Part shown: piece after piece, positions 17,971 through 29,284 of the stretch | Position numbering within the stretch: position 1 is the stretch's first letter | How the letters are laid out: every line of letters starts with the position of its first letter | Program-made: the position numbers and the translations under genes | Notes under the pieces: generated by a model | The model's database searches: none | The model's input: the letters and a program-made list of their open reading frames with translations, nothing else | Told to the model about the DNA's origin: nothing | NCBI GenBank assembly: GCA_964603125.1 | Contig: CAZRUA010000041.1 | Location: forward strand, 1 to 29,284 | Direction: 5' to 3' | From: an uncultured Flavobacteriaceae bacterium | GTDB taxonomy: Bacteria; Bacteroidota; Bacteroidia; B-17B0; Aurantibacillaceae | Length of the DNA stretch: 29,284 nt

Positions 17971-17997
17971 AGCCACGTTAATAGCGTGGCTTTTTTA
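17971..17997. terminator. Bidirectional rho-independent terminator between nrdA and the convergent downstream gene
   Basis: agccacg-ttaatag-cgtggct forms a 7-bp GC-containing stem followed by ttttttatt. It also sits at the 3' end of the minus-strand gene 17995-19080. Confidence 0.7.
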
Positions 17998-19080
17998 TTG
18001 TGTGAATTGCAAAACAGTTGGATCATAGGTTTTATAAGATAGAACCTTAGAAATCTTTCTACCCTTATATTCAATTGTAATTCTGCTTGTGTCTTTAGAA
18101 TTACTAGACGGAAGTTTGCAACCAGCAAACCACGCATAATCGCGCAAATCCGCATAATGATACTCTCCTTCTTCTCCAGAACAATTTATTTCAATCAATC
18201 TATTCTTTGCGTCATATACAAAGTTTATCTTGGAACAATGATTATATTTTCCATTTATTGGTAATGAGTCCGCATCAAACCACTCTATACATTTAATCCT
18301 GTTGTTTTCATAAGTATGTAATTCGAGCGCTATGCCGTAATCATCTCCAATTAAATGACTAGTTGAGTCAAAATATCTCCTTTGAATTAACTTTTTCTGT
18401 GAATAAGTATTTATGTAACCAGACCAAGAGAATTGAATATCACAACCTAAAACTCCTGCCTTTCTATAAAACATTTCACTTACTAAACCAAAGTTCTTAT
18501 TATATTTTGTAACCCAATAATTAATTTTTGTTGTGTCATTTTTTTTAATCTGTCCCCTTACATCATAATTATTTTTAAAATACCAAAAAGATCCTTCACA
18601 AGTATCATTATTTGAAATGTTCTTATAATAAGTTTCACTGAATTTTTTTCCTCTCGTAAAATTAACTTCCTTACAAAACCCTGAAATATTTTCTTTGAGT
18701 TGACCAAGTGAATCGTAAAAAATTGTAGTTCTTTCAATTACCTTTCTTCTTTGAATAGCTCTATAAACCTTATAAGCGATTCCTTCATAATCACAAACTA
18801 GATGACCAAGTGTATCCATATAAGATTCCTTCCAACAACTATTCTTCTTATCCTTTTCTCGCACAACTTCCCATACAGAATTTCCATAGGAATATAATGG
18901 GACGCGTCTATTTGTCGAATCAAAACAAATTTCCTTTGATTTCGATTTACTCAACCAAATTCTTTCAATTGTACTTCCATTGTCTTCTCTAAATTTAATA
19001 TTCGTTCTTTGTGAGAATCCGATTTGACAGAAAGTCAAAACTAAAACAATGAATATTTTTAATAAAAACTTCATTATCAA
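17995..19080 (-). CDS. Secreted hypothetical protein, W/Y/C-rich with YD-repeat-like motifs
   Basis: Signal peptide MIMKFLLKIFIVLVLTFCQIGFSQ. The motifs FYDSLGQL and YDAKNRLIEI resemble YD/RHS repeats. Confidence 0.45.
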   Translation of the reverse strand: MIMKFLLKIFIVLVLTFCQIGFSQRTNIKFREDNGSTIERIWLSKSKSKEICFDSTNRRVPLYSYGNSVWEVVREKDKKNSCWKESYMDTLGHLVCDYEGIAYKVYRAIQRRKVIERTTIFYDSLGQLKENISGFCKEVNFTRGKKFSETYYKNISNNDTCEGSFWYFKNNYDVRGQIKKNDTTKINYWVTKYNKNFGLVSEMFYRKAGVLGCDIQFSWSGYINTYSQKKLIQRRYFDSTSHLIGDDYGIALELHTYENNRIKCIEWFDADSLPINGKYNHCSKINFVYDAKNRLIEINCSGEEGEYHYADLRDYAWFAGCKLPSSNSKDTSRITIEYKGRKISKVLSYKTYDPTVLQFTQ

Positions 19081-19140
19081 ATATAGTCAATCTATATTTG
19101 AATCGCGCAATTCAATTAAATAAAATTTATATTCATTTTA

Positions 19141-19397
19141 AACACGCTGCGAAACCCTTTTAAAATATAGTGATTCAAAGCTATCAGTTTCTAAGAACAC
19201 TGAAATAAAATTTAAAAAGACAAAAAAAATTTTTGCAGATAAAAAATTTAAATTACTTTTGCATCACAAATAAAAATTATAAACTAAAAAATTAAACGAA
19301 AGAAACAATGTTGGTGTTAAATTTACATACGAAACCTTAAACCGGAAACATTAGTACTATCAATACTTTCAGCCCGGTTTATTGCCGGGTTTTTTAT
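19141..19397 (+). repeat. Copy 1 of a diverged ~260-bp direct repeat: promoter-like -33/-7 elements, a ~130-nt A-rich transcript region, and an intrinsic terminator. Candidate sRNA or attenuator leader upstream of rtcB
   Basis: TTTG at 19232-19235 and TAcTTTTG at 19254-19261 match Bacteroidetes -33/-7 elements. A terminator gcccgg-tttattg-ccgggt plus a T-run lies at 19372-19397. The region is homologous to 21901-22185 (cgaaacccttttaaaatatag vs cgaaacacctttaaaataaag; ttttgcatcacaaataaaaatt vs ttttgcatcataaaatattaaaaat). Confidence 0.4.
19372..19397 (+). terminator. Intrinsic terminator ending repeat copy 1
   Basis: 5-6 bp GC stem (gcccgg/ccgggt) with a 7-nt loop, followed by ttttttatttg. Confidence 0.5.
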
Positions 19398-19619
19398 TTG
19401 TTATAATTGAAAACAACTTTTTGGGGAGTCGAAAAGTAACCGGAAAAAATCAAAATTATTTTATTAAAAATCTTAGGTAAGATTTTAGAATTGATTTTCT
19501 AATGTCAGTTCAAGCAGCATTCTCTTTTCAGGAAATGTATCGAGAACAAACTGAAAATCAATTCCGCTTAGTCGAATACATCGACATGGAAAAATATTGC
19601 CTAAACAAAACCAACAATC

Positions 19620-21023
19620 ATGGGAAAAAATAGATTGAAGGGAAAACATTTAAGGAAAATAGATTTCCCTTCGGACATAGCTAAAAGTTTAGCATTAAAT
19701 ATTATGACGAAACATTTTAAACATGTTTCAAACGAAGAAAAATTACAAATAATACAAAACGTTCTTTTAAATCCTGAACAATACTTAGAAGATGAACATC
19801 TAAAACCCTTGTCGATTGCCTTAGTTGGGAAGCCAAAAATGAAAACTGATTATGAAGTTCACATGTTAAAACACAGTGGTGATTTTACCATTTATGGTCT
19901 ACGTCATATCGGACAAAATGCAATTCAACAAATGGAAGCAGCGATGCGATTACCCATCTCGATGAAAGGAGCTTTAATGCCTGATGCTCATCATGGATAT
20001 GGTTTGCCAATCGGCGGTGTACTAGCAACAAATAACGCAGTAATCCCTTTTGGAGTAGGCCTGGATATTGGTTGTCGAATGGCTTTGAGTATTTACAAAC
20101 TTCCAGAAGATTACATTCAACGCAAGGAGTATGATTTACAAAAAGCATTGCGTAGATATACACATTTTGGAAATGATGGGACACTTGATTTTGAAGTAGA
20201 TCATGAAGTGCTTGAGCGCCCTGAATTTCAAGCCACTGAATTACTCCGAAGATTACATGGTAAAGCGTGGTTTCAACTAGGTTCATCAGGCACAGGAAAT
20301 CATTTTGTTGAATTTGGAAATGTAACAATTGCTCAAAACAATACATTGAATTTACAACCTGGGAATTACATTGGTTTACTATCTCACAGCGGTTCAAGAG
20401 GCATGGGTGCTGCCATAGCAGCAACTTATACTAAAATAGCAATGCAAAAATGCAAACTTCCGCGTGAAATGCAATCAATGGCTTGGTTAAGTTTAGATGA
20501 AGAAGCTGGTCAAGAGTATTGGTTATCCATGAACTTAGCGGGTGACTATGCAAAAGCCTGTCATGATGTGATTCACAAAAACCTTGAACGTGTAATGGGC
20601 TTAGAAGCTATATGCAAAGTTGAGAATCATCACAATTTCGCATGGAAAGAAATACACGACGGTCAAGAATTGATTGTACACCGAAAAGGCGCAACGCCAG
20701 CAAACAAAGGTGAATTCGGTATCATACCAGGAAGTATGAGCAGCAATGGATACATAGTAAGTGGTTTAGGATTACAGGGTTCAATTAATTCAGCATCGCA
20801 TGGGGCCGGCCGAAAAATGTCACGTAAAGAAGCAAGAGAGAGTATAACAAAATCTTCGATGACAAATTTATTAGCCGAACAAAGTGTGAAATTAATTGGT
20901 GGCAGCGTAGAAGAGGCTTCATTTGCTTACAAGGATATTGAGACTGTTATGAGCTGTCAACAAGACCTAGTAAAAATAGAAGGTTCATTCACTCCAAAAA
21001 TTGTAAGGATGAACAAAAGTTAA
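19620..21023 (+). CDS. rtcB: RtcB-family 3'-phosphate/5'-OH RNA ligase (PrfH-associated RtcB2-type)
   Basis: DAHHGYGLPIGG and GSSGTGNHFVEFG are metal and GTP-binding motifs. The His-rich core is typical of RtcB. It sits immediately upstream of prfH, as in the E. coli rtcB2-prfH pair. Confidence 0.85.
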   Translation: MGKNRLKGKHLRKIDFPSDIAKSLALNIMTKHFKHVSNEEKLQIIQNVLLNPEQYLEDEHLKPLSIALVGKPKMKTDYEVHMLKHSGDFTIYGLRHIGQNAIQQMEAAMRLPISMKGALMPDAHHGYGLPIGGVLATNNAVIPFGVGLDIGCRMALSIYKLPEDYIQRKEYDLQKALRRYTHFGNDGTLDFEVDHEVLERPEFQATELLRRLHGKAWFQLGSSGTGNHFVEFGNVTIAQNNTLNLQPGNYIGLLSHSGSRGMGAAIAATYTKIAMQKCKLPREMQSMAWLSLDEEAGQEYWLSMNLAGDYAKACHDVIHKNLERVMGLEAICKVENHHNFAWKEIHDGQELIVHRKGATPANKGEFGIIPGSMSSNGYIVSGLGLQGSINSASHGAGRKMSRKEARESITKSSMTNLLAEQSVKLIGGSVEEASFAYKDIETVMSCQQDLVKIEGSFTPKIVRMNKS

Positions 21024-21065
21024 AACGCAATCGGTAATAACACCAATGAAAACAAAAGCTCTTTC

Positions 21066-21111
21066 TTATGTCAGTTCGAGCTTGTCGAGAACAGAATAAG
21101 AAAGAGCTTTA
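21066..21111 (+). promoter_or_regulatory. Strong intercistronic hairpin between rtcB and prfH
   Basis: aagctctttcttat ... ataagaaagagctt forms a 14-bp perfect stem enclosing gtcagttcgagcttgtcgagaacaga. It is not followed by a T-tract. It shares the ATGTCAGTTCRAGC ... TCGAGAACA motif with 19494-19560. Confidence 0.45.
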
Positions 21112-21123
21112 AAAAATTAAAAA

Positions 21124-21774
21124 ATGGAAACAAAAATATTACAAATAACATCAGGTAGAGGCCCCGCAGAATGCTGTTTAGCTGTTGCATTGACCTTGAA
21201 AGAAATATTGAAGGAGGCTAAAGAAAATAATTTAGCATGTGAAGTAATTAACCGCACACCATATAACATAAACGGAACTTTAGCTTCCGCATCTGTTAAA
21301 ATAAGTGGGAAAAACATTTCTCCATTCATTAATTCTTGGCAAGGTGTATTAGGTTGGATTTGTCAAAGTCCTTTCAGAACGATGCATAAAAGAAAAAACT
21401 GGTTCATAGGAATTGAAGTCTACGACTTATCATCCACTTCACAATGGAGTGAAAAAGATGTTTACTATCAAACACTTCGATCTTCAGGTCCAGGTGGTCA
21501 AAACGTAAATAAAGTAGAAACAGCTGTAAGAGCCGTACACAAGCCTTCAGGCGTGCAGGTTTTAGCTAATGAATCTCGTTCGCAAATGCAAAATAAAAAA
21601 ATTGCGTTAGAGCGATTAAAAGAATTATTTATACAATGGCAATTAAACAATTTAAGAAAAACAGAAAAGCAACAATGGCAAAATCATAATTGTGTTGAAA
21701 GAGGTAATCCAAAAAGAATTTACAAAGGAATCAATTTCAAAAAAGAAAAAATTGGACGTAGTCGAATCAATTGA
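21124..21774 (+). CDS. prfH: Peptide chain release factor homolog RF-H (PrfH)
   Basis: GGQ motif in context (LRSSGPGGQNVNKVETAVRAVH). The N-terminal GPAECCLAV, WICQSPFRTMHKRKNWFIGI and C-terminal ERGNPKRIYKG all align with my recollection of E. coli PrfH. Length is 216 aa. Confidence 0.85.
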   Translation: METKILQITSGRGPAECCLAVALTLKEILKEAKENNLACEVINRTPYNINGTLASASVKISGKNISPFINSWQGVLGWICQSPFRTMHKRKNWFIGIEVYDLSSTSQWSEKDVYYQTLRSSGPGGQNVNKVETAVRAVHKPSGVQVLANESRSQMQNKKIALERLKELFIQWQLNNLRKTEKQQWQNHNCVERGNPKRIYKGINFKKEKIGRSRIN

Positions 21775-21900
21775 TAATAAAGGATTCCAAAGCAAATGAG
21801 AAATTAAAAATTAAAAACTAGCAAGTATTAAAAAATTAAAACGAAACATACAGAATTCAATTTTGATTTATAAAAAATAAAATTGAAATAATAAATTTAT

Positions 21901-22185
21901 AATAATTTTAAATAAGGCTCGAAACACCTTTAAAATAAAGCTCTTCAAGGCAGTATGTTTTTAGAAAAGAAAAATATTTAAAATTTATTTCATAAAATAT
22001 TTTTTCAATTCAAAAATTTGATTTAGTTTTGCATCATAAAATATTAAAAATAAAATGAAAAATAGTTTTACATATCGTCAAAAGTCAATCCTGATAGGGC
22101 ATGCGCCGTTATCATATTGCATGGGGTGGTAAAATTATTTTAAATAATAATTCTAAACCCCGATACGCTCGGGGTTTTTTTATGA
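21901..22185 (+). repeat. Copy 2 of the diverged direct repeat (promoter-like elements, ~145-nt transcript region, terminator), downstream of prfH and upstream of the Rnl5-like ATP-dependent ligase gene
   Basis: TTTG at 22005-22008 and TAgTTTTG at 22024-22031. A terminator ccccga-tacgc-tcgggg plus T7 lies at 22155-22181. Homologous to 19141-19397. Confidence 0.4.
22155..22181 (+). terminator. Intrinsic terminator ending repeat copy 2
   Basis: aaaccccga tacgc tcggggttt followed by tttttttatg. Confidence 0.55.
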
Positions 22186-22296
22186 AATAAAAAATGCGAG
22201 TTAGAGAAAATAAAATACAAAACCTGTTTAGTTCAGCCAGTAAATTACCGGCTTACATACTGCGGTTGCGGAAATAATTATGATTGTAAACAATTG

Positions 22297-22328
22297 TAAA
22301 ACCCGTAACCAAAAGTTTCGGGTTTTTT
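22297..22328 (+). terminator. Second tandem terminator-like hairpin upstream of the Rnl5-like ATP-dependent ligase gene
   Basis: aacccg ... cgggtt stem followed by tttttttatgaa. This is the same tail sequence as the 22155 terminator, so the ~145-bp unit is repeated in tandem. Confidence 0.45.
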
Positions 22329-22379
22329 TATGAACAAAAATTGCTAAGGTGTCTCAGTACCAAAGCATGTTAGAGGAAG

Positions 22380-22407
22380 CCTTCCATCAAATGGGTGGAA
22401 GGTTTTA
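22380..22407 (+). terminator. Third hairpin plus T-run immediately upstream of the Rnl5-like ATP-dependent ligase gene start
   Basis: ccttcc-atcaaatgggt-ggaagg followed by ttttat, about 30 nt before the ATG at 22438. Confidence 0.35.
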
Positions 22408-22437
22408 TAAAAAATAAAAGAAAGGAGAAAAAATAAA

Positions 22438-23439
22438 ATGAGGAAATTAGCTTCAATACAAAAAATTAAAAATATAGAACCAATCGAAGGTGCAGATTCA
22501 ATTATGAAAGCAAGTGTTTTAGGTTGGCAATTAGTAATTAGAAAAGATGAATTTAAAATTGGTGATTTATGCGTTTACTGTGAAATTGACAGTGTATTAC
22601 CCGATAAACCAGAATTTGAATTTATCCGTGCTAAAACTAATCGTATTAAAACTATAAAATTACGTGGTCAAATTTCACAAGGTATCTGCTTTCCATTATC
22701 AGTTTTACCAGAAGGTATAGAGATTGTTGAGGATTTAGACGTTACAGAAATAATTGGTGTAACAAAATTTGAACCGCCAATTCCTGCTAACTTAGCTGGT
22801 GAGATTAAAGGCTTATTTCCTTCATTCATGCCTAAAACAGATGAAACTAGGGTGCAAGTTTTACAACATGTTTTAGATCAATACAAAGGATTAACCTGTT
22901 ACATTGCTGAGAAATTAGATGGAAGCTCTGTAACTTATTACTTCAAAGATGGTGAGTTTGGAGTTTGTTCGCGGAATTTAGATATAGTTAAAAACGAAGA
23001 AAACTCAATGTGGAAATTTGCAATTGAGAACGATTTAGAACAAAAGTTAAAATCATTAAACAAAAACATTTGCTTACAAGGTGAAATAATTGGTGAGGGT
23101 ATTCAAAAAAATAAATACAAGTTAAAAGGTCAAACGGTTTTCTTTTTTAATGTATTTGATATTGATAAATATGAATACTTATCATTAAGCTACTTTAAGC
23201 AAATAATAAATGATTTGAACTTAAAGCATGTTCCAATTATTGAAGATCAATATGAGTTAACGAACAATATGGATGAATTAATTTTAAAATCTAAATTAAA
23301 GTCGACGTTAAACAAAGATACAATCGCTGAAGGTATTGTTATCAGGCCAACGACAGAGATGATTGAAAAACATAAATTACAAGGACGCTTGTCGTTTAAA
23401 GTTATCAATCCAGATTTTTTAATAAAATACGACGAGTAA
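22438..23439 (+). CDS. ATP-dependent RNA ligase, Rnl5-like (DraRnl/NgrRnl-type: N-terminal OB-like domain plus nucleotidyltransferase domain)
   Basis: Motif I KxDG (AEKLDGSSV), motif IV EGIVIR, motif III-like FFFNVFDI and a motif V-like RLSFKVINPD. The N-terminus MRKLASIQKIKNIEPIEGADSI ... GWQLV resembles the N-terminal domain of Deinococcus/Naegleria nick-sealing RNA ligases. Confidence 0.65.
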   Translation: MRKLASIQKIKNIEPIEGADSIMKASVLGWQLVIRKDEFKIGDLCVYCEIDSVLPDKPEFEFIRAKTNRIKTIKLRGQISQGICFPLSVLPEGIEIVEDLDVTEIIGVTKFEPPIPANLAGEIKGLFPSFMPKTDETRVQVLQHVLDQYKGLTCYIAEKLDGSSVTYYFKDGEFGVCSRNLDIVKNEENSMWKFAIENDLEQKLKSLNKNICLQGEIIGEGIQKNKYKLKGQTVFFFNVFDIDKYEYLSLSYFKQIINDLNLKHVPIIEDQYELTNNMDELILKSKLKSTLNKDTIAEGIVIRPTTEMIEKHKLQGRLSFKVINPDFLIKYDE

Positions 23440-23547
23440 TTAAGAATGTAGAATGATGAATTCAGAACTAAAGCGACAAATAAAATTCAGTTTTTTATAT
23501 CTACCGAATTACGGTTGAATGGAGATCGTATGCTTAACTAAGCATAA

Positions 23548-23580
23548 GCCCGGTCTCAAAAGGATCGGGCTTTTTGTTTT
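23548..23580 (+). terminator. Terminator after the Rnl5-like ATP-dependent ligase gene
   Basis: agcccg-(13 nt)-cgggct followed by ttttgtttt. It is preceded by a second hairpin, tatgctta/taagcata, at 23530-23547. Confidence 0.5.
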
Positions 23581-23596
23581 ATTGCCTTCTTAGCCG

Positions 23597-23614
23597 ATCC
23601 CGATTGTAATCGGG
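23597..23614. repeat. Variant copy of the CCCGAT-N4-ATCGGG palindromic hairpin (TCCCGATTGTAATCGGGA)
   Basis: cccgatt/aatcggg is a 7-bp inverted repeat. It shares its arms with the 18-bp palindrome at 23649, 23732 and 26642. Confidence 0.5.
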
Positions 23615-23648
23615 AAGGCACTTGTCTTAGAAAAGAAAGGTGAGTTCG

Positions 23649-23666
23649 TCCCGATAGCTATCGGGA
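23649..23666. repeat. 18-bp perfect palindrome TCCCGATAGCTATCGGGA (copy 1)
   Basis: Exactly self-complementary. An identical copy lies 83 bp downstream. Confidence 0.6.
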
Positions 23667-23672
23667 TTGCAG

Positions 23673-23761
23673 AAGGCACAATGCACTTGTGGCGGAAATG
23701 GTATACGCAACAGACTTAAACTCTGTTATGAATGTTGGTTCTCCCGATAGCTATCGGGACT
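23673..23761 (+). tRNA. tRNA-Leu(TAA)-like type-II tRNA-like gene with non-canonical T-arm region (possible pseudo-tRNA)
   Basis: Acceptor GCACTTG/CATGTGC with one T-T mismatch. D-arm GCG-(11 nt with GG)-CGC. Anticodon arm AACAGA/TCTGTT with loop CTTAAAC (anticodon TAA). The T-arm position is occupied by the 18-bp palindrome (23732-23749) instead of a GTTCRANYC loop. Confidence 0.3.
23732..23749. repeat. 18-bp perfect palindrome TCCCGATAGCTATCGGGA (copy 2), embedded in the Leu-like tRNA-like element
   Basis: Identical to the copy at 23649-23666. Confidence 0.6.
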
Positions 23762-23767
23762 ATCATG

Positions 23768-23854
23768 TGCACTAAGAGGAGAAATAATCGAGCAGGGCTC
23801 GAACTTGTTTGCTAAACAATGTGTCCGCCTAATGGTGGTTGAGTGTCGGGAACT
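23768..23854 (+). tRNA. tRNA-Ser(GCT)-like type-II tRNA-like gene with non-canonical D-arm and T-loop
   Basis: Acceptor GGAGAAA/TTTCTCC is perfect. A CTTGT/ACAAT stem carries the loop TTGCTAA (anticodon GCT). The variable arm is CCGCC-TAAT-GGTGG. The T-arm is TGAGT-GTCGGGA-ACTCA and lacks the TTC T-loop signature. Confidence 0.3.
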
Positions 23855-23868
23855 CATTTCTCCGCAAA

Positions 23869-23951
23869 GGAAGATAGCGACCAGTGGTGGTCAGGCAGAC
23901 TTGAAATCTGCAGCGGTCTGAAAGGACAGGGTTCGACTCCTATATCTTCCG
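23869..23951 (+). tRNA. tRNA-Ser(TGA)-like type-II tRNA with weak T-stem
   Basis: Acceptor GGAAGAT/ATCTTCC is perfect. Anticodon arm GCAGA-CTTGAAA-TCTGC gives anticodon TGA. The variable arm is GTCT-GAAA-GGAC. The T-loop TTCGACT is canonical but the T-stem has only 3 bp. The D-arm GACC-AGTGGT-GGTC has one extra nucleotide at each junction. Confidence 0.4.
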
Positions 23952-23982
23952 CAAGTATTAAATTAAAATTGTTCTTTAAACA

Positions 23983-24055
23983 CGATTTATAGTATAATGG
24001 ATAACACACCCGATTACGACTCGGGAGACTTAAGGTTCGAGTCCTTATAAATCGA
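23983..24055 (+). tRNA. tRNA-Arg(ACG)
   Basis: 73 nt. Acceptor CGATTTA/TAAATCG. Anticodon arm CCCGA-TTACGAC-TCGGG. T-arm TAAGG-TTCGAGT-CCTTA. The D-stem has one A-C mismatch. The gene is AT-rich, and CCA is not encoded. Confidence 0.65.
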
Positions 24056-24060
24056 CGAAA

Positions 24061-24134
24061 TGAGATATAGCTCAACAGGTAAGAGCAGGTGCCTTATACG
24101 CACAAGGCTATAGGTTCAAATCCTATTATCTCAA
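24061..24134 (+). tRNA. tRNA-Ile(TAT)
   Basis: 74 nt. Acceptor TGAGATA/TATCTCA (U1-A72). D-arm GCTC-AACAGGTAA-GAGC. Anticodon loop CTTATAC (anticodon TAT). T-arm ATAGG-TTCAAAT-CCTAT. One G-A mismatch closes the anticodon stem. Confidence 0.6.
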
Positions 24135-24143
24135 CAAATAAAT

Positions 24144-24216
24144 CGGTCTATAGCTCAGATGGCAGAGCACCGTCCTTTTAAGACGGGAGTCCTTGGTTCG
24201 AATCCAAGTAGGCCGA
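24144..24216 (+). tRNA. tRNA-Lys(TTT)
   Basis: Fully canonical cloverleaf. Acceptor CGGTCTA/TAGGCCG (one G-U). D-arm GCTC-AGATGGCA-GAGC. Anticodon arm CCGTC-CTTTTAA-GACGG. T-arm CTTGG-TTCGAAT-CCAAG. Confidence 0.8.
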
Positions 24217-24226
24217 CAAATAAAAA

Positions 24227-24299
24227 CGGGATGTATTTCAATTGGTAGAATACGTGTTCTGGAAACATGAGGTTGCAGGTTCGAGTCCTGCCATCCCGA
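24227..24299 (+). tRNA. tRNA-Pro(TGG)-like with C at position 33 and an A/U-rich 3-bp D-stem
   Basis: Acceptor CGGGATG/CATCCCG. T-arm GCAGG-TTCGAGT-CCTGC. Anticodon stem CGTGT/ACATG with loop TCTGGAA (C33, anticodon TGG). An alternative fold gives a 9-nt loop. Confidence 0.5.
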
Positions 24300-24304
24300 C
24301 GAAT

Positions 24305-24378
24305 GGTGAAATTAGTGTAATGGCAAACACAAAAGCCTGTGAAGCTTTTAATACAGGTTCGATTCCCTTATTTCACCC
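24305..24378 (+). tRNA. tRNA-His(GTG)-like (G-1 encoded) with weak T-stem
   Basis: G-1 plus GTGAAAT/ATTTCAC, with C73. D-arm GTGT-AATGGCAA-ACAC. Anticodon arm AAAGC-CTGTGAA-GCTTT. The T-loop TTCGATT is flanked by a 3-of-5 paired stem (ACAGG/CCCTT). Confidence 0.5.
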
Positions 24379-24381
24379 ATT

Positions 24382-24454
24382 GGACAAGTAGCAAACGTGG
24401 TGTATGCGCTGGACTGAAAATCCAGAGAAAGTGGTTCAACCCCACTCTTGTCCA
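24382..24454 (+). tRNA. tRNA-Phe(GAA)
   Basis: Acceptor GGACAAG/CTTGTCC. Anticodon arm CTGGA-CTGAAAA-TCCAG. T-arm AGTGG-TTCAACC-CCACT. 3-bp D-stem with an 11-nt loop and a 4-nt variable loop. Confidence 0.65.
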
Positions 24455-24521
24455 CAAAAATTATTAGTAAAGCAAAAGCTATCTGGCTAAAAAAGAGATA
24501 GTAAATAATTAAAACAAAAAA

Positions 24522-24857
24522 ATGAAAACAACTTTCGAATTCAGAAAAAAGTTTTTAGAAGGTAGAGATGATTCAGGAAGATTCATTGTAACATCATACC
24601 GAACTGGTAAGACGTATTTTATCGAACCTATTGGCCCTGATAGAGCCGCTGATTGGGGAAGTTACAATCCTTCAACAGGAAACATCGAAAACAAAAAAGG
24701 TTTTGATAAACATAGAGGTGCAATTGATGAAAAAGATTCTCTAATTACGAAGGAAAATGGATTCCTTGATATTAGATATTCGGGAGTAGGAGGATCACCT
24801 TTTAGTGTAATTGAAAAAATGGATGCTCAGTATCCCAACATCAATAAAATTCACTAA
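24522..24857 (+). CDS. Hypothetical 111-aa protein embedded in the tRNA array
   Basis: ORF with a proper ATG. I recognise no motif. It lies between tRNA-Phe and tRNA-Tyr and is followed by the hairpin gcggaatt ... aattccgc at 24869-24892. Confidence 0.45.
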   Translation: MKTTFEFRKKFLEGRDDSGRFIVTSYRTGKTYFIEPIGPDRAADWGSYNPSTGNIENKKGFDKHRGAIDEKDSLITKENGFLDIRYSGVGGSPFSVIEKMDAQYPNINKIH

Positions 24858-24868
24858 TGATACTTCTA

Positions 24869-24892
24869 AAAATAAAGCGGAATTTGAAAAAT
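24869..24892 (+). terminator. Hairpin after the 111-aa ORF (8-bp stem, no T-tract)
   Basis: gcggaatt-tgaaaaatt-aattccgc. Confidence 0.3.
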
Positions 24893-24905
24893 TAATTCCG
24901 CAATT

Positions 24906-24989
24906 GGGAATGCGCTAACGATGGTGAGTTAGACTGGTCTGTAACACCAGGGTCATTTGACTTAATAGGTTCGAATCCTATCATTCCCA
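24906..24989 (+). tRNA. tRNA-Tyr(GTA), type II
   Basis: Acceptor GGGAATG/CATTCCC. D-arm CTAA ... TTAG. Anticodon arm CTGGT-CTGTAAC-ACCAG. Long variable arm GTCA-TT-TGAC. T-arm ATAGG-TTCGAAT-CCTAT. Position 8 is C. Confidence 0.65.
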
Positions 24990-25034
24990 CAACAATTATC
25001 GTTTCAAGCCGAAATTGTTATATAGTTCTTTGAT

Positions 25035-26039
25035 TTAATAGTTTTTCAATGCGTCTTTAAATCGCTCTTGCATTTTAAGGCTTAATCTTCTTGGACTTAG
25101 CACTTTTACATGCTCACCATAACCGAGCAGTTCTCGTTCTAACTCAAAGTTCCAAATAACTTTAATAGAAAAGATTGTTCCATCATCTTCTTCTTTTAAT
25201 ACTTCTTGGGAAACGTGGAGTGGTTTTGTAATAATATATGGTGCATGTTCTTTAACAAACTTAAGCACTATGGTTTGGGCTCTTTGATTAATGTTTTTAG
25301 TTACTCCAATTGTATCGGCGTAATAATCATTAACATTAAAGTCAGGCTTTACATACTTCTCTGAGTTTAATTCCTGAATATTGAGTATTCTATCCAGAGC
25401 AAGATTCATAATCGTTTTATTCTTTCGAGTTGCACCAAGAATAAACCATCTATTACGATACTCTTTAAGCAAATACGGATAAAAAATAATTTGCTGAGGA
25501 ATACGAGCTTTAAAAGATTGATAAGAAATTTCAAGCGTTTTTTTGCTAATAATTGCCTTATGCAAAATATCGATATACTTTAAACCTTTCACGAGCACAT
25601 TCTTTTCAAACTCAATATAGGATTTACCTTTATGGCTTTGTTTGTAGAGTTTATCTTCAAGTCGAGTTACCATTCCGTTAAGCTCCTCAAAAAAACCAAA
25701 TGCTTTAAACTGCTTTAAAACATCAACTACTTCATTCAAAGTATTCATGTCTTGTTGAGTTAAAGGATTATTTGTGATACTGTAGTCTTTCTCGGCGTAA
25801 CTATAATACTTTTTATCACTTACAATAATTGGCGCATTGTACCCAAGCTTTTCGCTTCGCATATTATAAATATCGAGTTGTAAAGTTCGTCGACTAACGC
25901 CAGTAGTAATTCCTTCGTATTCATAAAGCGCATCAGAGCAAGCTTCCATAAGATCTTCTAATGTCCATTTACGAAAACGGTTTTGCAAACAGTTATCAAT
26001 TGTTTTATAACGAATAAGGGCTAATTTGTTTATTGACAT
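25035..26039 (-). CDS. WYL-domain transcriptional regulator (N-terminal HTH, central WYL, C-terminal extension)
   Basis: 334 aa. The WYL-domain signature RNRWFILGATRKNKTIMNLALDRILNI gives the W-F/Y-L triad and an (L/F)RLDRI motif. The N-terminal MSINKLALIRYKTIDNCLQNR is HTH-like. Confidence 0.65.
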   Translation of the reverse strand: MSINKLALIRYKTIDNCLQNRFRKWTLEDLMEACSDALYEYEGITTGVSRRTLQLDIYNMRSEKLGYNAPIIVSDKKYYSYAEKDYSITNNPLTQQDMNTLNEVVDVLKQFKAFGFFEELNGMVTRLEDKLYKQSHKGKSYIEFEKNVLVKGLKYIDILHKAIISKKTLEISYQSFKARIPQQIIFYPYLLKEYRNRWFILGATRKNKTIMNLALDRILNIQELNSEKYVKPDFNVNDYYADTIGVTKNINQRAQTIVLKFVKEHAPYIITKPLHVSQEVLKEEDDGTIFSIKVIWNFELERELLGYGEHVKVLSPRRLSLKMQERFKDALKNY

Positions 26040-26247
26040 GATTTCGAATTGAGAATGATAACCAAAAATACAAAAATCAACGCAATGTAAATGCGCAGTT
26101 CAAATAATTCTGAAATGAAATAAAATTAATTCCTTTCATTTCCAGTCAATTATCAAAATATGTAAAGAATTCATTTACTACGCAAATTGACTGCGCACTT
26201 CTTTAATTCCTTTGTATCCATATAAAAACAAAAAATGAAATCGACAT

Positions 26248-26565
26248 ATGAATAAATATATAAGATTAAAAGAAGAGTTAGAAAAAATAGGAATAGGTAA
26301 AATGAAATGCTTTGGAAACTCAATGCTTCCAATTTTAAAAAGCGGCTCATTGCTAACCTTTAAAAAAGAAAATGATTACAAAGTAAATGATATTGTGTTT
26401 TGTAAAGTGAAAGGGAGATTCATCGATGCGCACCTAATTACAAAGATTGATGCAAACAGAGGGTATCTGATAGCAAACAATCATGGTTATGAAAATGGTT
26501 GGACAAAAATAATATATGGAAAAGCCGTATACAGTGAATTTAAGAATGAAAGTAAAAAACTATAA
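26248..26565 (+). CDS. S24-family (LexA/UmuD-like) peptidase domain protein, stand-alone
   Basis: GNSMLP matches the G-[DN]-S-M-x-P catalytic Ser motif of S24/S26 peptidases. A downstream Lys (KVKGRF) could serve as the general base. Only 105 aa, so the peptidase domain alone. Confidence 0.45.
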   Translation: MNKYIRLKEELEKIGIGKMKCFGNSMLPILKSGSLLTFKKENDYKVNDIVFCKVKGRFIDAHLITKIDANRGYLIANNHGYENGWTKIIYGKAVYSEFKNESKKL

Positions 26566-26641
26566 TTGACAAAAGCTCATCCGCCGCGATGGAGTTGAGC
26601 ACCTGCCGATTTTAGAATCGGCATTAATCGGAAGGAAGTAG

Positions 26642-26659
26642 TCCCTATAGCTATCGGGA
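26642..26659. repeat. Third copy of the 18-bp palindrome, with one mismatch (TCCCTATAGCTATCGGGA)
   Basis: 17 of 18 identical to the copies at 23649 and 23732. It lies in the ORF-free region 26566-27610. Confidence 0.5.
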
Positions 26660-26873
26660 GAATAATATATTAACAATTGGTTAGCCAAATATGGCGCACC
26701 AGATAGATGTAAAATTGTTGCTATGCTCTTGTTAAAGCGTAGTTAGTATAAGGAGTGGTTAAAGGCCACAGCTCGATAACAATAAGGGCAAAGTTTGTAA
26801 AAGCCTATACGTTACATAGCATCTATCAAAGTACTGGTTTAATAAATGGAATAAATCCCATTGAAACCTAAAA

Positions 26874-26942
26874 ACATTTCAGGCTATGGCAGCCAATTGC
26901 TCTCCAAAAGCAAAGGACAACGTTCGATTCGTTGGAAATGTG
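26874..26942 (+). tRNA. tRNA-Trp(CCA)-like with shortened D-arm
   Basis: Acceptor ACATTTC/GAAATGT is perfect. Anticodon arm TTGCT-CTCCAAA-AGCAA gives anticodon CCA. T-arm CAACG-TTCGATT-CGTTG is canonical. The D-arm GGCT-ATGGC-AGCC is irregular. Total length 69 nt. Confidence 0.35.
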
Positions 26943-27201
26943 CCAATAGAATAATAGCAGCTAGGGCAAAGCCTTGTTTAAAACGTAGGAAATTCCCGTT
27001 ATTATTCTAAAAACTTAAAACATTGTTCATTGAAAAACAAAATACTGTTCGGAAGAACAAAAAATCTTCCTCGTGCCAGAGGAAGCGCGATACATAAACA
27101 AAACAATGCCTTGTTGTGGGTTTAAAACGCCCCATAGTATTGTACCAGTAGGAATCAATATACTGCAGCGCCATGTTTAGGGTATTGCTCATGTTGGGGT
27201 C

Positions 27202-27359
27202 AAGGGTTCAATTCCCTTTTTGTTCACAAGGACAAATAGCTCAGTTGGTTAGAGCACAACGCTTAGGTTACGGGTTCGAGTCCCGTCACGATTTCGCTCG
27301 TGTAACTCAATGGTAGAGTAATGGACTGAAAATCCATGCGTAGAAGTTGACTTACTTCT
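27202..27359 (+). pseudogene. String of degenerate tRNA-like modules: a 3' T-arm-plus-acceptor fragment, a D-arm-plus-T-arm module lacking an anticodon arm, and a tRNA-Phe(GAA)-like copy lacking a 3' acceptor strand
   Basis: 27202-27226 is AAGGG-TTCAATT-CCCTT followed by TTTGTTC. 27230-27293 is GGACAAA-TA-GCTCAGTTGGTTAGAGC, 13 nt, ACGGG-TTCGAGT-CCCGT. 27296-27359 is GCTCGTG-TA-ACTC-AATGGTA-GAGT-A-ATGGA-CTGAAAA-TCCAT followed by AGAAG-TTGACTTA-CTTCT. The junctions form hairpins: TTTGTTC/GGACAAA and CACGA/TCGTG. Confidence 0.3.
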
Positions 27360-27610
27360 TTAAAAATAGGTCACCAAAGAATGAGCAAATCATTTCAGTC
27401 AAATTACTAAATGTAAAATGACAGTTGGATTTTTGTCAGGATAGGCAGATACCGTTTTCACAAAGGTTTTGCTTTTTAGGCGTAGTAAACAATTACTTCT
27501 AAAAACCACTATTGGAGGTGCAAACTTAAGCTAAATCTTCACCAAAATTTGATGAAGTGCTTTGCAAGTTCTTTAAATAGAATTAAAAACAAAACATAAA
27601 AACAAATAAA

Positions 27611-28714
27611 ATGATACAAAGAGTAAAAGTTGATGCCTGGAAAAAAGGCTTGGTAATTAAAAACAACAATTTAATTGATGTTTTAAGTGAAGGTACATAC
27701 TGGTTATCTGCAAGTGTAGCTGTAATTAATTATGATATGGCTAAACCATTTGTTGCGCCAATTAACCTTAACATTTTGATGAAAAATCAAAAATTTGCAG
27801 ATGCGGTTAAAATAGTAAACGTAGCCGACAATGAAATAGCATTGCGCTATGAAGGAGATACATTTGTTGAAGTATTAACCCAAGGTAAATACCTCTATTG
27901 GGAAGGTTTGGTAGAACACAAAATAATTGCAATTGACTTGAGTGTTGTGGATATTGATGTTGGCATAGATAAAGCAATACTTACACGTAAAGAGCTTGCT
28001 CCATACATACGCACTTTTGTTATAGAACCTAATGAAAAAGCAATTGTTTATATTGATGGTAAGTTCAACAAAATTGTTGAAGCAGGTTCTTACAGCTATT
28101 GGAAAAACAATACTAACATAGCCATAACAAAAGTTGAAACACGAACCATGCAAATGGAAGTTGCTGGTCAAGAAATACTGACAAAAGATAAGGCCGTAAT
28201 ACGACTAAACTTTTACTTGCAATACAATGTTGTTGACGCTGTTAAAGCAATTTTAAACAACAAGGAGTACGAAAAACAATTGTATGTTTTAATACAGCTT
28301 GCTTTACGTGAATTTGTTGGTTCCATGACCTTAGATGAGCTTTTAGAGAAAAAAGAAAATGTATCTGATTACATATTGGATTCAACTGCTCGAAAAGTTT
28401 CATACTTGGGTGTATTAATAAAAGGTTGTGGTATACGTGATATTATTTTACCTGGTGATATGAAGGAAATAATGAATCAAGTATTGATTGCAGAGAAAAA
28501 AGCCCAAGCTAACACAATTATGCGTCGTGAGGAAACTGCCTCAACACGTAGCTTGCTAAATACTGCAAAGCTAATGGAAGACAATGCGATGTTGTTTAAG
28601 TTAAAAGAAATGGAATATGTAGAAAAGATTGCAGAGAAGATAAATACTATTTCATTATCAGGTGGTTCACAAATTGTGGATCAGCTAAAACAAATATTTG
28701 TCTCTAATAAATAG
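27611..28714 (+). CDS. SPFH (band 7 / stomatin-prohibitin-like) domain protein with ~170-aa N-terminal extension
   Basis: The C-terminal half carries an SPFH-domain pattern (KDKAVIRLNFYLQYNVVD ... REFVGSMTLDELLEKKENVS ... IRDIILPGDMKEIMNQVLIAEKKAQANTIMRREE). Confidence 0.65.
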   Translation: MIQRVKVDAWKKGLVIKNNNLIDVLSEGTYWLSASVAVINYDMAKPFVAPINLNILMKNQKFADAVKIVNVADNEIALRYEGDTFVEVLTQGKYLYWEGLVEHKIIAIDLSVVDIDVGIDKAILTRKELAPYIRTFVIEPNEKAIVYIDGKFNKIVEAGSYSYWKNNTNIAITKVETRTMQMEVAGQEILTKDKAVIRLNFYLQYNVVDAVKAILNNKEYEKQLYVLIQLALREFVGSMTLDELLEKKENVSDYILDSTARKVSYLGVLIKGCGIRDIILPGDMKEIMNQVLIAEKKAQANTIMRREETASTRSLLNTAKLMEDNAMLFKLKEMEYVEKIAEKINTISLSGGSQIVDQLKQIFVSNK

Positions 28715-28742
28715 ATAAAACCCTCATTTCAATTTGGAAGTG

Positions 28743-28813
28743 AGGGATAAAATGCCCTTTCGTCTAACGGCAGGACGTTACTTTTTGACAGTAAATATTG
28801 TGGTTCGAATCCA
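28743..28813 (+). tRNA. tRNA-Gln(TTG)
   Basis: Acceptor TGCCCTT/AAGGGCA (U1-A72, as is usual for bacterial tRNA-Gln). D-arm GTCT-AACGGCA-GGAC. Anticodon arm TTACT-TTTTGAC-AGTAA is perfect. T-arm TGTGG-TTCGAAT-CCACG with one U-G pair. The variable loop is 4 nt. Confidence 0.7.
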
Positions 28814-29284
28814 CGAAGGGCAACAAAAATAAACTTATAGATTATCTGCCGCGGCAGAGTAAAAGCTGCTGTAAAATTACTTAACCGCGAAGTGTGGGGA
28901 TAATTCCGGCGAGCCTTGACGTTGCGAAGAGCTGAGTTTACAGTGCACCGGAAAAGAGAAATCAAAGTAGGGAAGCGTATTTATAGCCATACTATTCAGA
29001 AATGAAAATGGAGGTTCGAATCCCATTAGGGCCGCAGAAAGGGACTGACCTGATAAAAAAGGGTTCAGTCCCTTTGTCATTAAAAGAAAATCGCCCGACA
29101 GACGGGCGATTTCAGCGATTACAGAATTTATTTTTGGAGTTCGAAATGACCCATTTTTTCGATCATAAACAATCCCTTCAGGAAAGACTAATTTTTGCAA
29201 TTTTTCCTTGAGATTTATGCTTCCTTTGAGCCACAATCTCGTGATTTTCAGGCACAATTGGGCTACCTCATGTAGGCTTTCGCA

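Follow-up and report, generated by a model that had tools for sequence, protein, structure and literature searches.

Why does one stretch of a bacterial chromosome hold two RNA ligases, a release-factor homologue and a compact set of tRNA genes, next to a regulator, a structured RNA and an SPFH protein? We addressed this question in CAZRUA010000041.1, a contig of a metagenome-assembled genome (MAG; GCA_964603125.1) from an uncultured Flavobacteriaceae bacterium. The window, as we call the whole stretch that was analysed, is the entire 29,284-base MAG contig. Positions refer to it unless a related locus (L001, L002 and so on) is named, and the only tRNA genes on the contig are those of the region that begins at 19081, referred to below as the island. 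On the sequence evidence set out here, this region is probably a chromosomal island for the repair and rescue of the translation apparatus, made up of four modules and belonging to a Flavobacteriia-like lineage of Bacteroidota. Close relatives of the island proteins carry the labels Bacteroidota or Bacteroidia, with Flavobacteriia among the more distant ones. The proteins that an initial annotation of the region had named (RtcB, PrfH, an RNA ligase, an orphan open reading frame (ORF), WYL, S24 and SPFH) were all found in their places:

19620–21023 (+): RtcB RNA ligase (PF01139, E = 2.5e-76)
21124–21774 (+): PrfH, the release-factor homologue (TIGR03072, 234.7 bits against a cut-off of 166.65)
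22438–23439 (+): ATP-dependent RNA ligase of the NgrRnl/DraRnl (Rnl5) family, here called Rnl (PF21189, PF09414; TIGR02306)
24522–24857 (+): orf111, an array-associated small protein (285 relatives at 60–89% identity)
25035–26039 (−): WYL-WCX transcription regulator (PF13280, PF25583; PADLOC WYL, E = 1.7e-26)
26248–26565 (+): stand-alone S24/S26-like peptidase domain of 105 amino acids with a GNSM serine motif (PF00717, E = 1.5e-6)
27611–28714 (+): SPFH/Band-7 protein with no evident membrane segment (PF01145, E = 6.8e-26)

Repair genes and tRNA arrays recur together

Related loci were sampled by exact-protein look-ups of PrfH relatives, and one more, L087, was reached through orf111. We defined a close clade by RtcB and PrfH proteins that are 80–86% and 62–66% identical, respectively, to those of the window, and used 17 more distant PrfH–RtcB loci and 63 RF1/RF2 loci as controls (80 in total). 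tRNA arrays were present in five of the six other close-clade PrfH loci (L001, L002, L003, L089 and L090, but not L092), compared with 2 of the 80 controls (Fisher p = 3.5e-6). The 63 RF1/RF2 loci held 12 tRNAs in all, with two or more in 2 of them, and the controls carried 0.2 tRNA per 20 kb. The grouping of repair genes with tRNA arrays exceeds chance.

Consistent with the initial view of these components as a single translation-repair neighbourhood, RtcB–PrfH, Rnl, WYL, SPFH, the S24-like gene and tRNA arrays recur in L001–L003, L087, L089 and L090. Alignment to relatives had been proposed as a check on whether the region behaves as a block; the parts do recur together, but their order is shuffled and the flanking genes differ in every related locus. 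In L002, L087 and L089, the WYL gene is divergent from the SPFH gene with an RNA in between. In L090, its divergent partner is a TROVE (Ro60) gene, behind which lie five tRNAs and RtcB, and in L001 the ligase follows a Thg1-like gene. L087, which has no PrfH, contains eight tRNAs, orf111, WYL, the RNA, SPFH, a tRNA-Lys, an S24-like gene beside SPFH, RtcB and RlaP. In our reading, the island is accessory and mosaic.

A rescue factor and two RNA ligases

RtcB enzymes join 3'-phosphate or 2',3'-cyclic-phosphate ends to 5'-hydroxyl ends. The motifs MPDAHHGYG, DIGC, GTGNHF, HSGSRG, NHHN and SHGAGR of the window protein align with TTHA1785, and its metal-binding and His-GMP motifs align with those of solved RtcBs. 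It has an extra N-terminal region of about 95 amino acids and falls below the cut-off of the TIGR03073 'release_rtcB' model (144.3 versus 271.8 bits), and it is 80–86% identical to the copies in L001–L003, L090 and L092. This RtcB appears to represent a Bacteroidota clade that diverges from TIGR03073 while its gene context is unchanged: prfH starts 100 nucleotides after the end of rtcB, and the two genes are also adjacent in 22 other PrfH loci.

The PrfH protein has 216 amino acids, with the GGQ motif inside SGPGGQNV (residues 120–127). It aligns to residues 111–283 of RF2 chains and lacks the N-terminal domain 1 of RF1 and RF2. Its nearest relative is 67% identical, and its best solved relative is PrfH of Capnocytophaga gingivalis (9mor_A, E = 5.7e-60). 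PrfH releases the peptide from ribosomes cut between A1493 and G1494 of 16S rRNA, biochemistry that covers the E. coli and C. gingivalis proteins only, and it is established that RtcB–PrfH rescues and repairs ribosomes with colicin-E3-type damage (PMC9304027, PMC9223846). A Flavobacteriia subfamily also rescues non-stop ribosomes (PMC12829566). As the first module of the island, PrfH would free peptides from ribosomes cut in the 16S decoding centre and RtcB would re-ligate the 2',3'-cyclic-phosphate/5'-hydroxyl break, as shown for homologues of both.

In five loci, prfH is followed directly, and often with overlap, by a gene for a 680-amino-acid protein with an FtsH-type Peptidase_M41 domain (L001 10632–12680, L003 10632–12674, L089 842–2887, L090 10631–12673 and L092 10596–12677); the gene is absent from the window and from L002. 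M41 and SPFH (HflK/C-like) neighbours recall the HflKC–FtsH partnership and suggest degradation of the released peptides. Further 3' of the PrfH–M41 pair, L003 (12780–18765) and L092 (12783–18570) carry a set of nicotinamide adenine dinucleotide (NAD)/ADP-ribose genes. NrtR, Prs and NAMPT are present in both, NADAR and KptA/Tpt1 in L003, and Macro and ADP-ribosylglycohydrolase in L092. These genes apparently tie the PrfH clade to NAD-dependent RNA-end processing.

The second ligase belongs to a family that seals 3'-hydroxyl/5'-phosphate nicks in duplex RNA, as known from Shuman-laboratory biochemistry on the Deinococcus and Naegleria enzymes. Rnl scores 193.1 bits with TIGR02306 (cut-off 151.15) and consists of an N-terminal OB domain (PHA02142) followed by a nucleotidyltransferase (RNA_ligase) domain with KLDG. 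Its KLDGSS aligns with the NgrRnl motif, Naegleria RNA ligase (5cot_A) is matched with E = 6e-70, and the protein also matches the phage RNA-ligase family PHROG 968. The second module would mend 3'-hydroxyl/5'-phosphate nicks in base-paired RNA.

A restricted tRNA set with tRNA-like members

We called tRNA genes with ARAGORN and with Rfam, the latter at the gathering score plus an E-value scan. ARAGORN returned nine tRNAs, of which Rfam recovered seven at its gathering score; the E-value scan added tRNA-Tyr with 38 bits. The check with tRNA finders that the initial annotation had proposed supports an array, to which at least four tRNA-like genes and an RNA of 350–500 nucleotides, both overlooked at first, are added. 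The window holds at least 13, and by one count about 14, tRNA and tRNA-like genes:

23584–23678 (+): tRNA-Leu(UAG)-like gene with the palindrome CCCGAT..ATCGGG in the D-loop and the T-loop, as compared with the canonical tRNA-Leu(UAG) of L001
23683–23771 (+): tRNA-Leu(UAA)-like gene with the palindrome in the T-loop (weak Rfam tRNA match at 23683–23736; fold)
23778–23864 (+): tRNA-like RNA-1, a five-arm cloverleaf kept in L087, L003 and L001
23869–23951 (+): type-II tRNA with anticodon UGA, Ser-like (Rfam tRNA-Sec, 34.6 bits), kept in L087 and L003
23983–24455 (+): six canonical, tightly packed tRNAs, Arg-ACG, Ile-UAU, Lys-UUU, Pro-UGG, His-GUG and Phe-GAA (ARAGORN; Rfam 56–70 bits)
24906–24990 (+): tRNA-Tyr(GUA) with a long variable arm (ARAGORN; Rfam 38 bits; orthologues in L087 and L090 79–82% identical)
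26574–26945 (+): window-specific RNA block (ARAGORN, fold, palindrome)
28753–28824 (+): tRNA-Gln(UUG), the last gene of the block (ARAGORN, Rfam; orthologues in the arrays of L001, L003 and L087)

A tRNA array unit is defined by at least 20 tRNA genes and at least 2 per kb (Tran et al. 2016, PMC4758250); the window reaches the density (6 in 473 nucleotides) but not the gene count.

Orthologues of the six packed tRNAs are present in other island loci, and island tRNAs with the same anticodon are orthologous across loci (Lys 93–95% identical, Ile 89%, Phe 74–84%). They have features in common: C1–G72 is found in all five copies of Arg-ACG and all four of Lys-UUU, the Ile tRNA of the islands is UAU, and the D-arms of Phe, Pro and Tyr are odd. 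Across seven loci (the window, L001–L003, L087, L089 and L090), 37 tRNAs called by ARAGORN span 11 amino acids: Phe, Leu, Arg, Gln, Lys, Pro, Tyr, Ile, His, Met and Trp. None of these 37 reads a codon that starts with G (Val, Ala, Asp, Glu or Gly), whereas in the viral arrays sampled 39% of the tRNAs serve such codons or Ser, Thr, Asn and Cys. The array tRNAs are a distinct, co-inherited lineage, in line with the initial proposal of a separate tRNA set. Most members keep the expected charging identity elements; those read in the sequences are G-1:C73 for His, C1–G72/A73 for Pro and A1–U72/G73, the bacterial Trp set, for Trp.

The tRNA-like members depart from this pattern in different ways. 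The loop UUGCUAA of tRNA-like RNA-1 would give anticodon GCU, while its D and T arms are atypical; of its 33 predicted pairs, 9 show compensatory changes. The consensus cloverleaf of the type-II UGA tRNA has nine compensated pairs. The tRNA-Leu(UAG)-like gene folds at −47.7 kcal/mol (z = −7.2), and its two palindrome copies can pair with each other. Within the window-specific block, which has no counterpart in the other loci compared, 26574–26672 is a tRNA-like remnant with the palindrome, and 26874–26945 is a tRNA-Trp(CCA) with a 4-bp D-stem and a 5-nucleotide D-loop. The latter was called by ARAGORN and missed by the Rfam tRNA model, and it is the sole tRNA of the window with an encoded CCA (to 26948).

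The palindrome, CCCGAT(N4)ATCGGG, is 16–18 nucleotides long and occurs four times in the window, always inside the island, where 0.02 copies are expected (23599–23614, 23650–23665, 23743–23758 and 26643–26658). L001 has it at 17342–17357 and 17390–17405, and an identical 23-nucleotide palindrome copy lies in duplicated Gln-like and Leu-like genes of that locus. A tiny mobile element, a designed decoy or decay could account for it.

As the third module, the extra tRNAs (Arg, Ile, Lys, Pro, His, Phe, Tyr, Trp, Gln and the Ser- and Leu-like members), together with orf111, would be expressed conditionally and would replace or shield host tRNAs destroyed by RNase toxins.

Two tRNA orthologues in other loci carry inserts (L003 19835–19943 and L087 9845–9938): about 36 nucleotides in the anticodon loop of a tRNA-Ile(UAU) orthologue, and about 20 nucleotides in the T-arm of one tRNA-Arg(ACG). 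Such inserts beside RNA ligases raise the question of cut-and-ligate maturation. A candidate tRNA gene on the minus strand at 29195–29284 was discarded, as its fold is not tRNA-like.

orf111 accompanies tRNA genes

The orf111 family comprises proteins of 105–115 amino acids, with members in L003 (20005–20334), L086–L088, L093–L102 and L113. No match was found in Pfam, PHROG, NCBIfam or PADLOC. In all 15 loci read, the gene sits among tRNA genes; these were drawn from the window, L003, L087, two phage-like contigs, ten IMG/VR contigs fetched with orf111 and one fetched with RtcB. An AlphaFold model built from a multiple sequence alignment reached a predicted local distance difference test score (pLDDT) of 85, compared with 39.5 for the single sequence, and the alignment-based model had no fold match in PDB or BFVD. 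orf111 is a tRNA-array marker common to Bacteroidota phages and these islands.

A regulator, a structured RNA and an SPFH protein

The right-hand part of the island joins the WYL and S24-like genes to the SPFH gene through further RNA and regulatory elements:

26080–26097 and 26180–26197 (+): two operator-like inverted repeats, ACGCAA-N6-TGCGCA, in the divergent promoter region of WYL and S24
27040–27400, with conservation to about 27560 (+): structured RNA of concatenated tRNA-like modules, aligned between the window, L002, L087 and L089

WYL relatives in L002, L087, L089 and L090 are 61–76% identical and always divergent from an SPFH or TROVE gene. No helix-turn-helix model matched residues 1–150 of the window protein, the only window protein that PADLOC recognised. 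The inverted repeat matches twice in the window where 0.05 matches are expected; the pair is also found beside WYL in L087 and as a single copy in L002. We looked for the motif upstream of rtcB, rnl and the array and found none there. The repeats are likely WYL operators for a unit of S24, the RNA, SPFH and tRNA-Gln. An S24-like copy 73% identical to that of the window adjoins Band_7 in L087, and copies of 40–48% identity lie beside tRNA genes in two viral contigs, in L113 next to RtcB.

The SPFH-linked RNA measures about 350–500 nucleotides and contains T-arm, D-arm and anticodon-arm modules. Of its 58 predicted pairs, 20 show compensatory changes across the four loci. Rfam gave YrlA at 39.7 bits, below the gathering score of 69, and a tRNA match of 31 bits at 27303–27359. 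An anticodon-arm-like hairpin (27321–27337) has an invariant stem, AUGGA/UCCAU, with a loop triplet that varies between loci: GAA in the window, GUU in L002 (12994), GUA in L087 (12602) and GUU in L089 (4575). The SPFH protein is 64–67% identical in L002, L087 and L089 and is encoded 3' of the structured RNA each time; a look-up of its exact sequence gave no record. An SPFH gene, a conserved tRNA-like RNA (four loci) and an RtcB-type ligase thus share one neighbourhood; the L089 contig starts just before PrfH, so that this stretch stops short of the RtcB position. The window has no TROVE domain, whereas the sister locus L090 has one. The fourth module, comprising WYL divergent from the S24-like gene, the multi-tRNA-like RNA and SPFH, would be the SPFH counterpart of the Ro60/Y-RNA platform and is probably a ribonucleoprotein scaffold or sensor.

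Predicted attenuators precede the repair genes

Two repeated upstream regions, each followed by a short leader ORF and a terminator, stand in front of rtcB–prfH and rnl:

19123–19270 (+): promoter/upstream regulatory module, copy 1, with −33 TTTG at 19232–19235 and −7 TACTTTTG at 19254–19261
19308–19340 (+): class-1 leader ORF, translated as MLVLNLHTKP*
19339–19398 (+): predicted attenuator (terminator scan, fold, conservation)
21893–22040 (+): promoter/upstream regulatory module, copy 2, a direct repeat of 19123–19270
22055–22132 (+): class-2 leader ORF, translated as MKNSFTYRQKSILIGHAPLSYCMGW*, 25 residues that begin MKNSFTYRQK
22155–22177 (+): class-2 intrinsic terminator; GGGG at the ORF end can pair with its CCCC arm
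23546–23572 (+): second terminator-like hairpin, directly 5' of the RNA-gene block (terminator scan)

The two modules of about 150 nucleotides are 73–80% identical with the same spacing; their Bacteroidota-type −33 and −7 elements were assigned by the published Bacteroides promoter consensus. The copy-1 module is kept 5' of rtcB in L001, L003, L090 and L092, and the module also precedes the tRNA arrays of L087 and L003 and the Thg1–Rnl pair of L001. Leader ORFs with terminators are kept in six loci for class 1 and four for class 2, with units at 19308–19398 and 22055–22184 in the window, 8208–8300 and 14712–14860 in L001, 8258–8350 and 19110–19260 in L003, 8967–9110 in L087, 8252–8345 in L090 and 8265–8355 in L092.

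The class-1 ORF of ten codons recurs in L001, L003, L090 and L092, where it differs by synonymous substitutions and a small number of non-synonymous ones; L002 carries another ORF, of 11 codons, at this position. Its stop is overlapped by AAACCGG (19339–19345), which is complementary to CCGGTTT (19374–19380), the 5' arm of an intrinsic terminator at 19371–19391 that is followed by a T-run. Read from the sequences, this alternative pairing amounts to at least 6 bp in five of six loci and to 4 bp in L092. Rfam gave a weak Trp_leader-like match at 19306–19398. Class-2 homologues of 25–27 codons in L087, L003 and L001 share MK(N/H)xF(T/I)Y..., differ in length by whole codons, and stand 5' of the L087 and L003 tRNA arrays and of Thg1–Rnl in L001. 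The class-2 leader folds with z = −3.9. A hairpin homologous to the one at 23546–23572 lies immediately upstream of the first tRNA in L003 and L001.

These leader–terminator units look like translation-sensing attenuators and appear to be undescribed. Because the end of the leader ORF overlaps the arm that pairs with the terminator, efficient translation would favour termination and stalled ribosomes would favour read-through.

Composition and mobility of the island

The initial annotation had taken everything before 19 kb for housekeeping, and this is borne out. Left of 19081 lie ordinary chromosomal genes encoding GatB, a DUF4369 thioredoxin-family lipoprotein typical of Bacteroidota, an extracytoplasmic-function sigma factor, MsrAB, carbonic anhydrase, bestrophin, an ABC ATPase and both ribonucleotide-reductase subunits. 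The left neighbour of the island (17995–19080, minus strand) encodes a 361-amino-acid protein with a signal-peptide-like N terminus and no family match, and nothing on this left flank hints at an insertion.

A change in sequence character at 19 kb had also been claimed. Coding density does fall, the noncoding share being 40% in the island region and 7% outside, but composition does not change: the whole window has a GC content of 33%, codon usage is alike, and the genes have GC and third-position GC (GC3) values of 0.328 and 0.250 in the region versus 0.327 and 0.253 outside. The island genes equal their flanks in GC and GC3, so composition gives no signal of recent transfer. The long AT-rich spacers that had been noted hold for three of five (26–27% GC), although core spacers, at 21–30% GC, are equally AT-rich. 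The two longest spacers (23440–24521 and 26566–27610) have 41% and 37% GC because they are packed with RNA genes.

A last feature lies at the right-hand contig end:

28877–29284 (−): 3' part of a recombinase-like gene, an open frame that runs off the contig end (last 408 bases)

The statement that the window contains no integrase must be qualified: this fragment encodes the C-terminal part of a recombinase-like protein. It has no Pfam match. All eight relatives (P0241–P0248) are short contig-edge pieces, two of which are named (site-specific) recombinase by JGI or NCBI, and a related fragment is found at L103 1–205. Such a pattern points to assemblies breaking at an element that is repeated or varies between strains. 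tRNA-Gln had been put forward as an integration target; no direct repeat of its 3' end was found within the window, whose contig ends 460 nucleotides past the gene. Evidence for horizontal acquisition is confined to the differing flanks, the mosaic content and this recombinase fragment. In L092, the upstream genes include an integrase, 10 kb away, and a defence-like set.

A model for the island and its alternatives

We propose that two stress gates control the expression of the island. In the first, the promoter module, leader ORF and terminator ahead of rtcB–prfH, rnl and the arrays of sister loci would act as a switch: a ribosome at the leader stop would mask the antiterminator arm and cause termination, and a slow or absent ribosome would free the arm and allow read-through. 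Ribosome or tRNA damage would in this way turn on the repair genes and the spare tRNAs. In the second, WYL would bind the paired operators beside its own gene. A more far-reaching version, which we regard as speculative and rather unlikely, is a self-contained damage-sensing circuit in which attenuators would report ribosome or tRNA failure and switch on two ligases, the rescue factor, toxin-resistant C1–G72 tRNAs and hairpin-bearing tRNA-mimic decoys as one regulon, with orf111 as a new tRNA-handling or nuclease-blocking factor.

Several points weigh against the proposal of a repair and rescue island. The window has no toxin or nuclease gene, and composition does not support horizontal acquisition. 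None of the 17 distant PrfH–RtcB loci has a tRNA within 10 kb, so the tRNA link is specific to one clade, where common descent of a few loci, and not selection, could partly account for it. The island tRNAs could be the sole copies of their isoacceptors, and the UAU tRNA might be the usual decoder of AUA, which makes up 23–33% of Ile codons. The hairpin-bearing tRNA-like genes may be mere pseudogenes. The initial annotation had both ligation chemistries resealing cut tRNA, which for Rnl and anticodon-loop cuts is an extrapolation: since Rnl5 enzymes, by the biochemistry described above, prefer duplex nicks, a role on tRNA loops is doubtful. As for the attenuators, their stems are nearly invariant and show almost no covariation for the alternative pairing, and the terminator prevails when the naked RNA is folded to minimum energy. 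The conserved leader codons (Lys, Phe, Tyr, Arg/His, Gln, Ile, Leu and Pro) largely coincide with the array isoacceptors; we rejected this as evidence, as about half of the residues match by chance.

The island could instead be a general translational-stress regulon that answers antibiotics, starvation or oxidative damage rather than toxins, raising the tRNA pool and mending spontaneous breaks. We consider this possibility rather unlikely. Translation inhibitors induce the tRNA array and rtcB of Anabaena (PMC8421152), ribosome-targeting antibiotics elicit a response from the Rtc system of E. coli (PMC12606134), and leader attenuators would answer any slowing of the ribosome. However, the lesion that PrfH recognises is specific to toxins (PMC9304027), the isoacceptors form a narrow set and not a full complement, and the sister loci carry additional NAD/ADP-ribose conflict genes and have defence-like genes as neighbours.

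The array consists mostly of canonical cloverleaves that keep identity elements for charging, as fits genuine decoding. This makes it doubtful that the tRNA and tRNA-like genes are decoys, sensors or ribonucleoprotein parts that would soak up toxins or yield fragments sensed by WYL or the SPFH-linked RNA. Some members do have the look of such roles: acceptor and anticodon arms are kept while hairpins are inserted in the elbow-forming D- and T-loops, and the SPFH-linked RNA consists of tRNA-like modules with a variable anticodon-like loop (GAA, GUU or GUA). That RNA has a weak YrlA-like match, and the tRNAs of L090 occupy the place of the Y RNA in Rsr operons. There are also precedents, a sponge role having been proposed for cyanobacterial array tRNAs (PMC8421152) and RtcR being activated by tRNA fragments (PMC7790460).

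We judge it improbable that the island derives from a phage or integrative element, either as a captured fragment or as its cargo end, with the array, orf111 and the ligases as a counter-defence kit against host anticodon nucleases. Phage links exist: orf111 lies within tRNA arrays in all ten IMG/VR loci and in two phage-like contigs, 11 of 27 viral RtcB relatives are near large tRNA arrays (some with S24-like or SPFH genes), and Rnl matches a phage family. The partial recombinase at the right end, where assemblies repeatedly break, and the integrase upstream in L092 point the same way. Yet phage structural and replication genes are absent from the window, the identity of viral RtcB relatives does not exceed 54%, no viral relative of the SPFH protein was found, neither a tRNA-Gln direct repeat nor a compositional contrast is seen, and viral arrays hold a much broader tRNA set.

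It is more improbable still that the tRNAs are ordinary housekeeping copies beside an RtcB–PrfH operon, in a core-genome region with no joint function, as GC, GC3 and codon usage equal to the flanks and six array tRNAs with good Rfam scores and expected identity elements would allow, because a restricted isoacceptor set accompanies the repair genes into differing genomic contexts, carries lineage oddities (C1–G72 in Arg and Lys, the UAU Ile tRNA), is interleaved with orf111, otherwise a phage tRNA-array protein, follows leader–terminator units in sister loci that are unexpected for constitutive tRNAs, and contrasts with only 0.2 tRNA per 20 kb in controls.

Relation to known systems

RtcB–PrfH pairs with accreted accessory genes have already been described (PMC6514570). 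The window has the gene order, rtcB then prfH, of the RtcB2–PrfH pair of E. coli ATCC 25922 and of the CgPrfH–CgRtcB pair of C. gingivalis. Its RtcB differs by falling below the release_rtcB cut-off and by its extra N-terminal region, and its PrfH extends only about 11 residues past the core, compared with a 26-residue tail in CgPrfH. The RtcB2–PrfH pair has no known regulation, whereas the pair in the window comes with a predicted leader attenuator, tRNAs, a second ligase and the WYL/SPFH module.

Burroughs and Aravind reportedly described in 2016 SPFH/Band-7 scaffolds with a cognate tRNA-like RNA in RtcB systems. TROVE and SPFH scaffolds, tRNA-like RNAs, RlaP and WYL/CARF sensors are catalogued RNA-repair parts (PMC7790460, PMC12776372), and an SPFH gene is also present in the Pseudomonas rtc locus (PMC13086221). 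The window resembles the Salmonella rsr–yrlBA–rtcBA locus (PMC7790460) in placing a scaffold gene beside a tRNA-like RNA and RtcB, with a divergent ligand-sensing regulator (CARF–RtcR there, WYL here). Unlike Ro60/Y-RNA modules, it lacks TROVE, RtcA and RtcR and adds an S24-like peptidase; compared with YrlA, its RNA is longer, has several tRNA-like modules and scores below the gathering threshold.

Cyanobacterial supernumerary tRNA arrays are silent until translation is impaired, with rtcB linked and co-regulated (PMC8421152), and mycobacterial arrays carry RF-1, Pth and tmRNA genes (PMC5966550). The window has in common with L-arrays and tRNA array units a tight group of tRNAs, here putatively extra copies, that is linked to rtcB and RNA-processing genes and shared with phages. 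It has about 9–14 genes for a restricted amino-acid set, against 20–43 genes for most amino acids in L-arrays, and predicted leader attenuation in place of promoter direct repeats and the TrcR repressor; PrfH, WYL and SPFH are present.

Jumbo phages combine tRNA provisioning with RtcB- and ATP-dependent ligases (PMC7824862), and phage tRNAs escape anticodon nucleases (PMC10264068, PMC11555353). Such kits (T4 Pnkp/Rnl1 against PrrC; T5 and jumbo-phage tRNAs with RtcB, Rnl1 and Rnl2) parallel the window in the logic of pairing substitute tRNAs with ligases of both end chemistries to counter defences that cut tRNA, and Bacteroidota phage contigs have the orf111-plus-array architecture in common with it. 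The block in the window differs in its chromosomal setting, bordered on one side by housekeeping genes, and in including a ribosome-rescue factor along with a regulator of cellular type; it lacks an end-healing kinase/phosphatase, and its ligase is of the Rnl5 type, not Rnl1 or Rnl2.

The leaders have the short ORF, the terminator and, as predicted, the competing pairing at the ORF end that are known from trp, his and pheA leaders and from translation-sensing resistance-gene leaders. Unlike these classical attenuators, they would control RNA-repair genes and tRNA arrays instead of amino-acid biosynthesis, have no run of a single codon and have almost invariant stems.

Given the precedents (PMC6514570, PMC7824862, PMC8421152), the initial statement that such an island has not been described as a unit was too strong. 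Our literature search did not find the Bacteroidota combination (PrfH–RtcB, Rnl5, WYL/SPFH/RNA and a small restricted array), nor shared leader-peptide units, orf111 or hairpin-bearing tRNA-like genes. The parts, namely WYL/tRNA-like RNA/SPFH, RtcB–PrfH and the ligase, are known. What is new is their combination in Bacteroidota, together with the leader/terminator units, the array-bound orf111, the palindrome-bearing tRNA-like genes and the partial recombinase past tRNA-Gln.

RNA-cutting toxins, including colicins, effectors of contact-dependent inhibition (CDI) and type VI secretion systems (T6SS), and abortive-infection nucleases, are a main weapon among bacteria and against phages, and cellular countermeasures are known mainly as single enzymes. 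The island suggests that some Bacteroidota may unite ribosome rescue, two ligation chemistries and a private tRNA reserve under shared translation-sensing control. It offers entry points to the toxins that select the isoacceptor set, to nuclease resistance or trapping by C1–G72 or hairpin-bearing tRNAs, and to the roles of the SPFH–RNA particle and the phage-shared orf111. It would also take stress-induced supernumerary tRNA operons, studied so far in a single cyanobacterium, into a second phylum, where the predicted switch is different.

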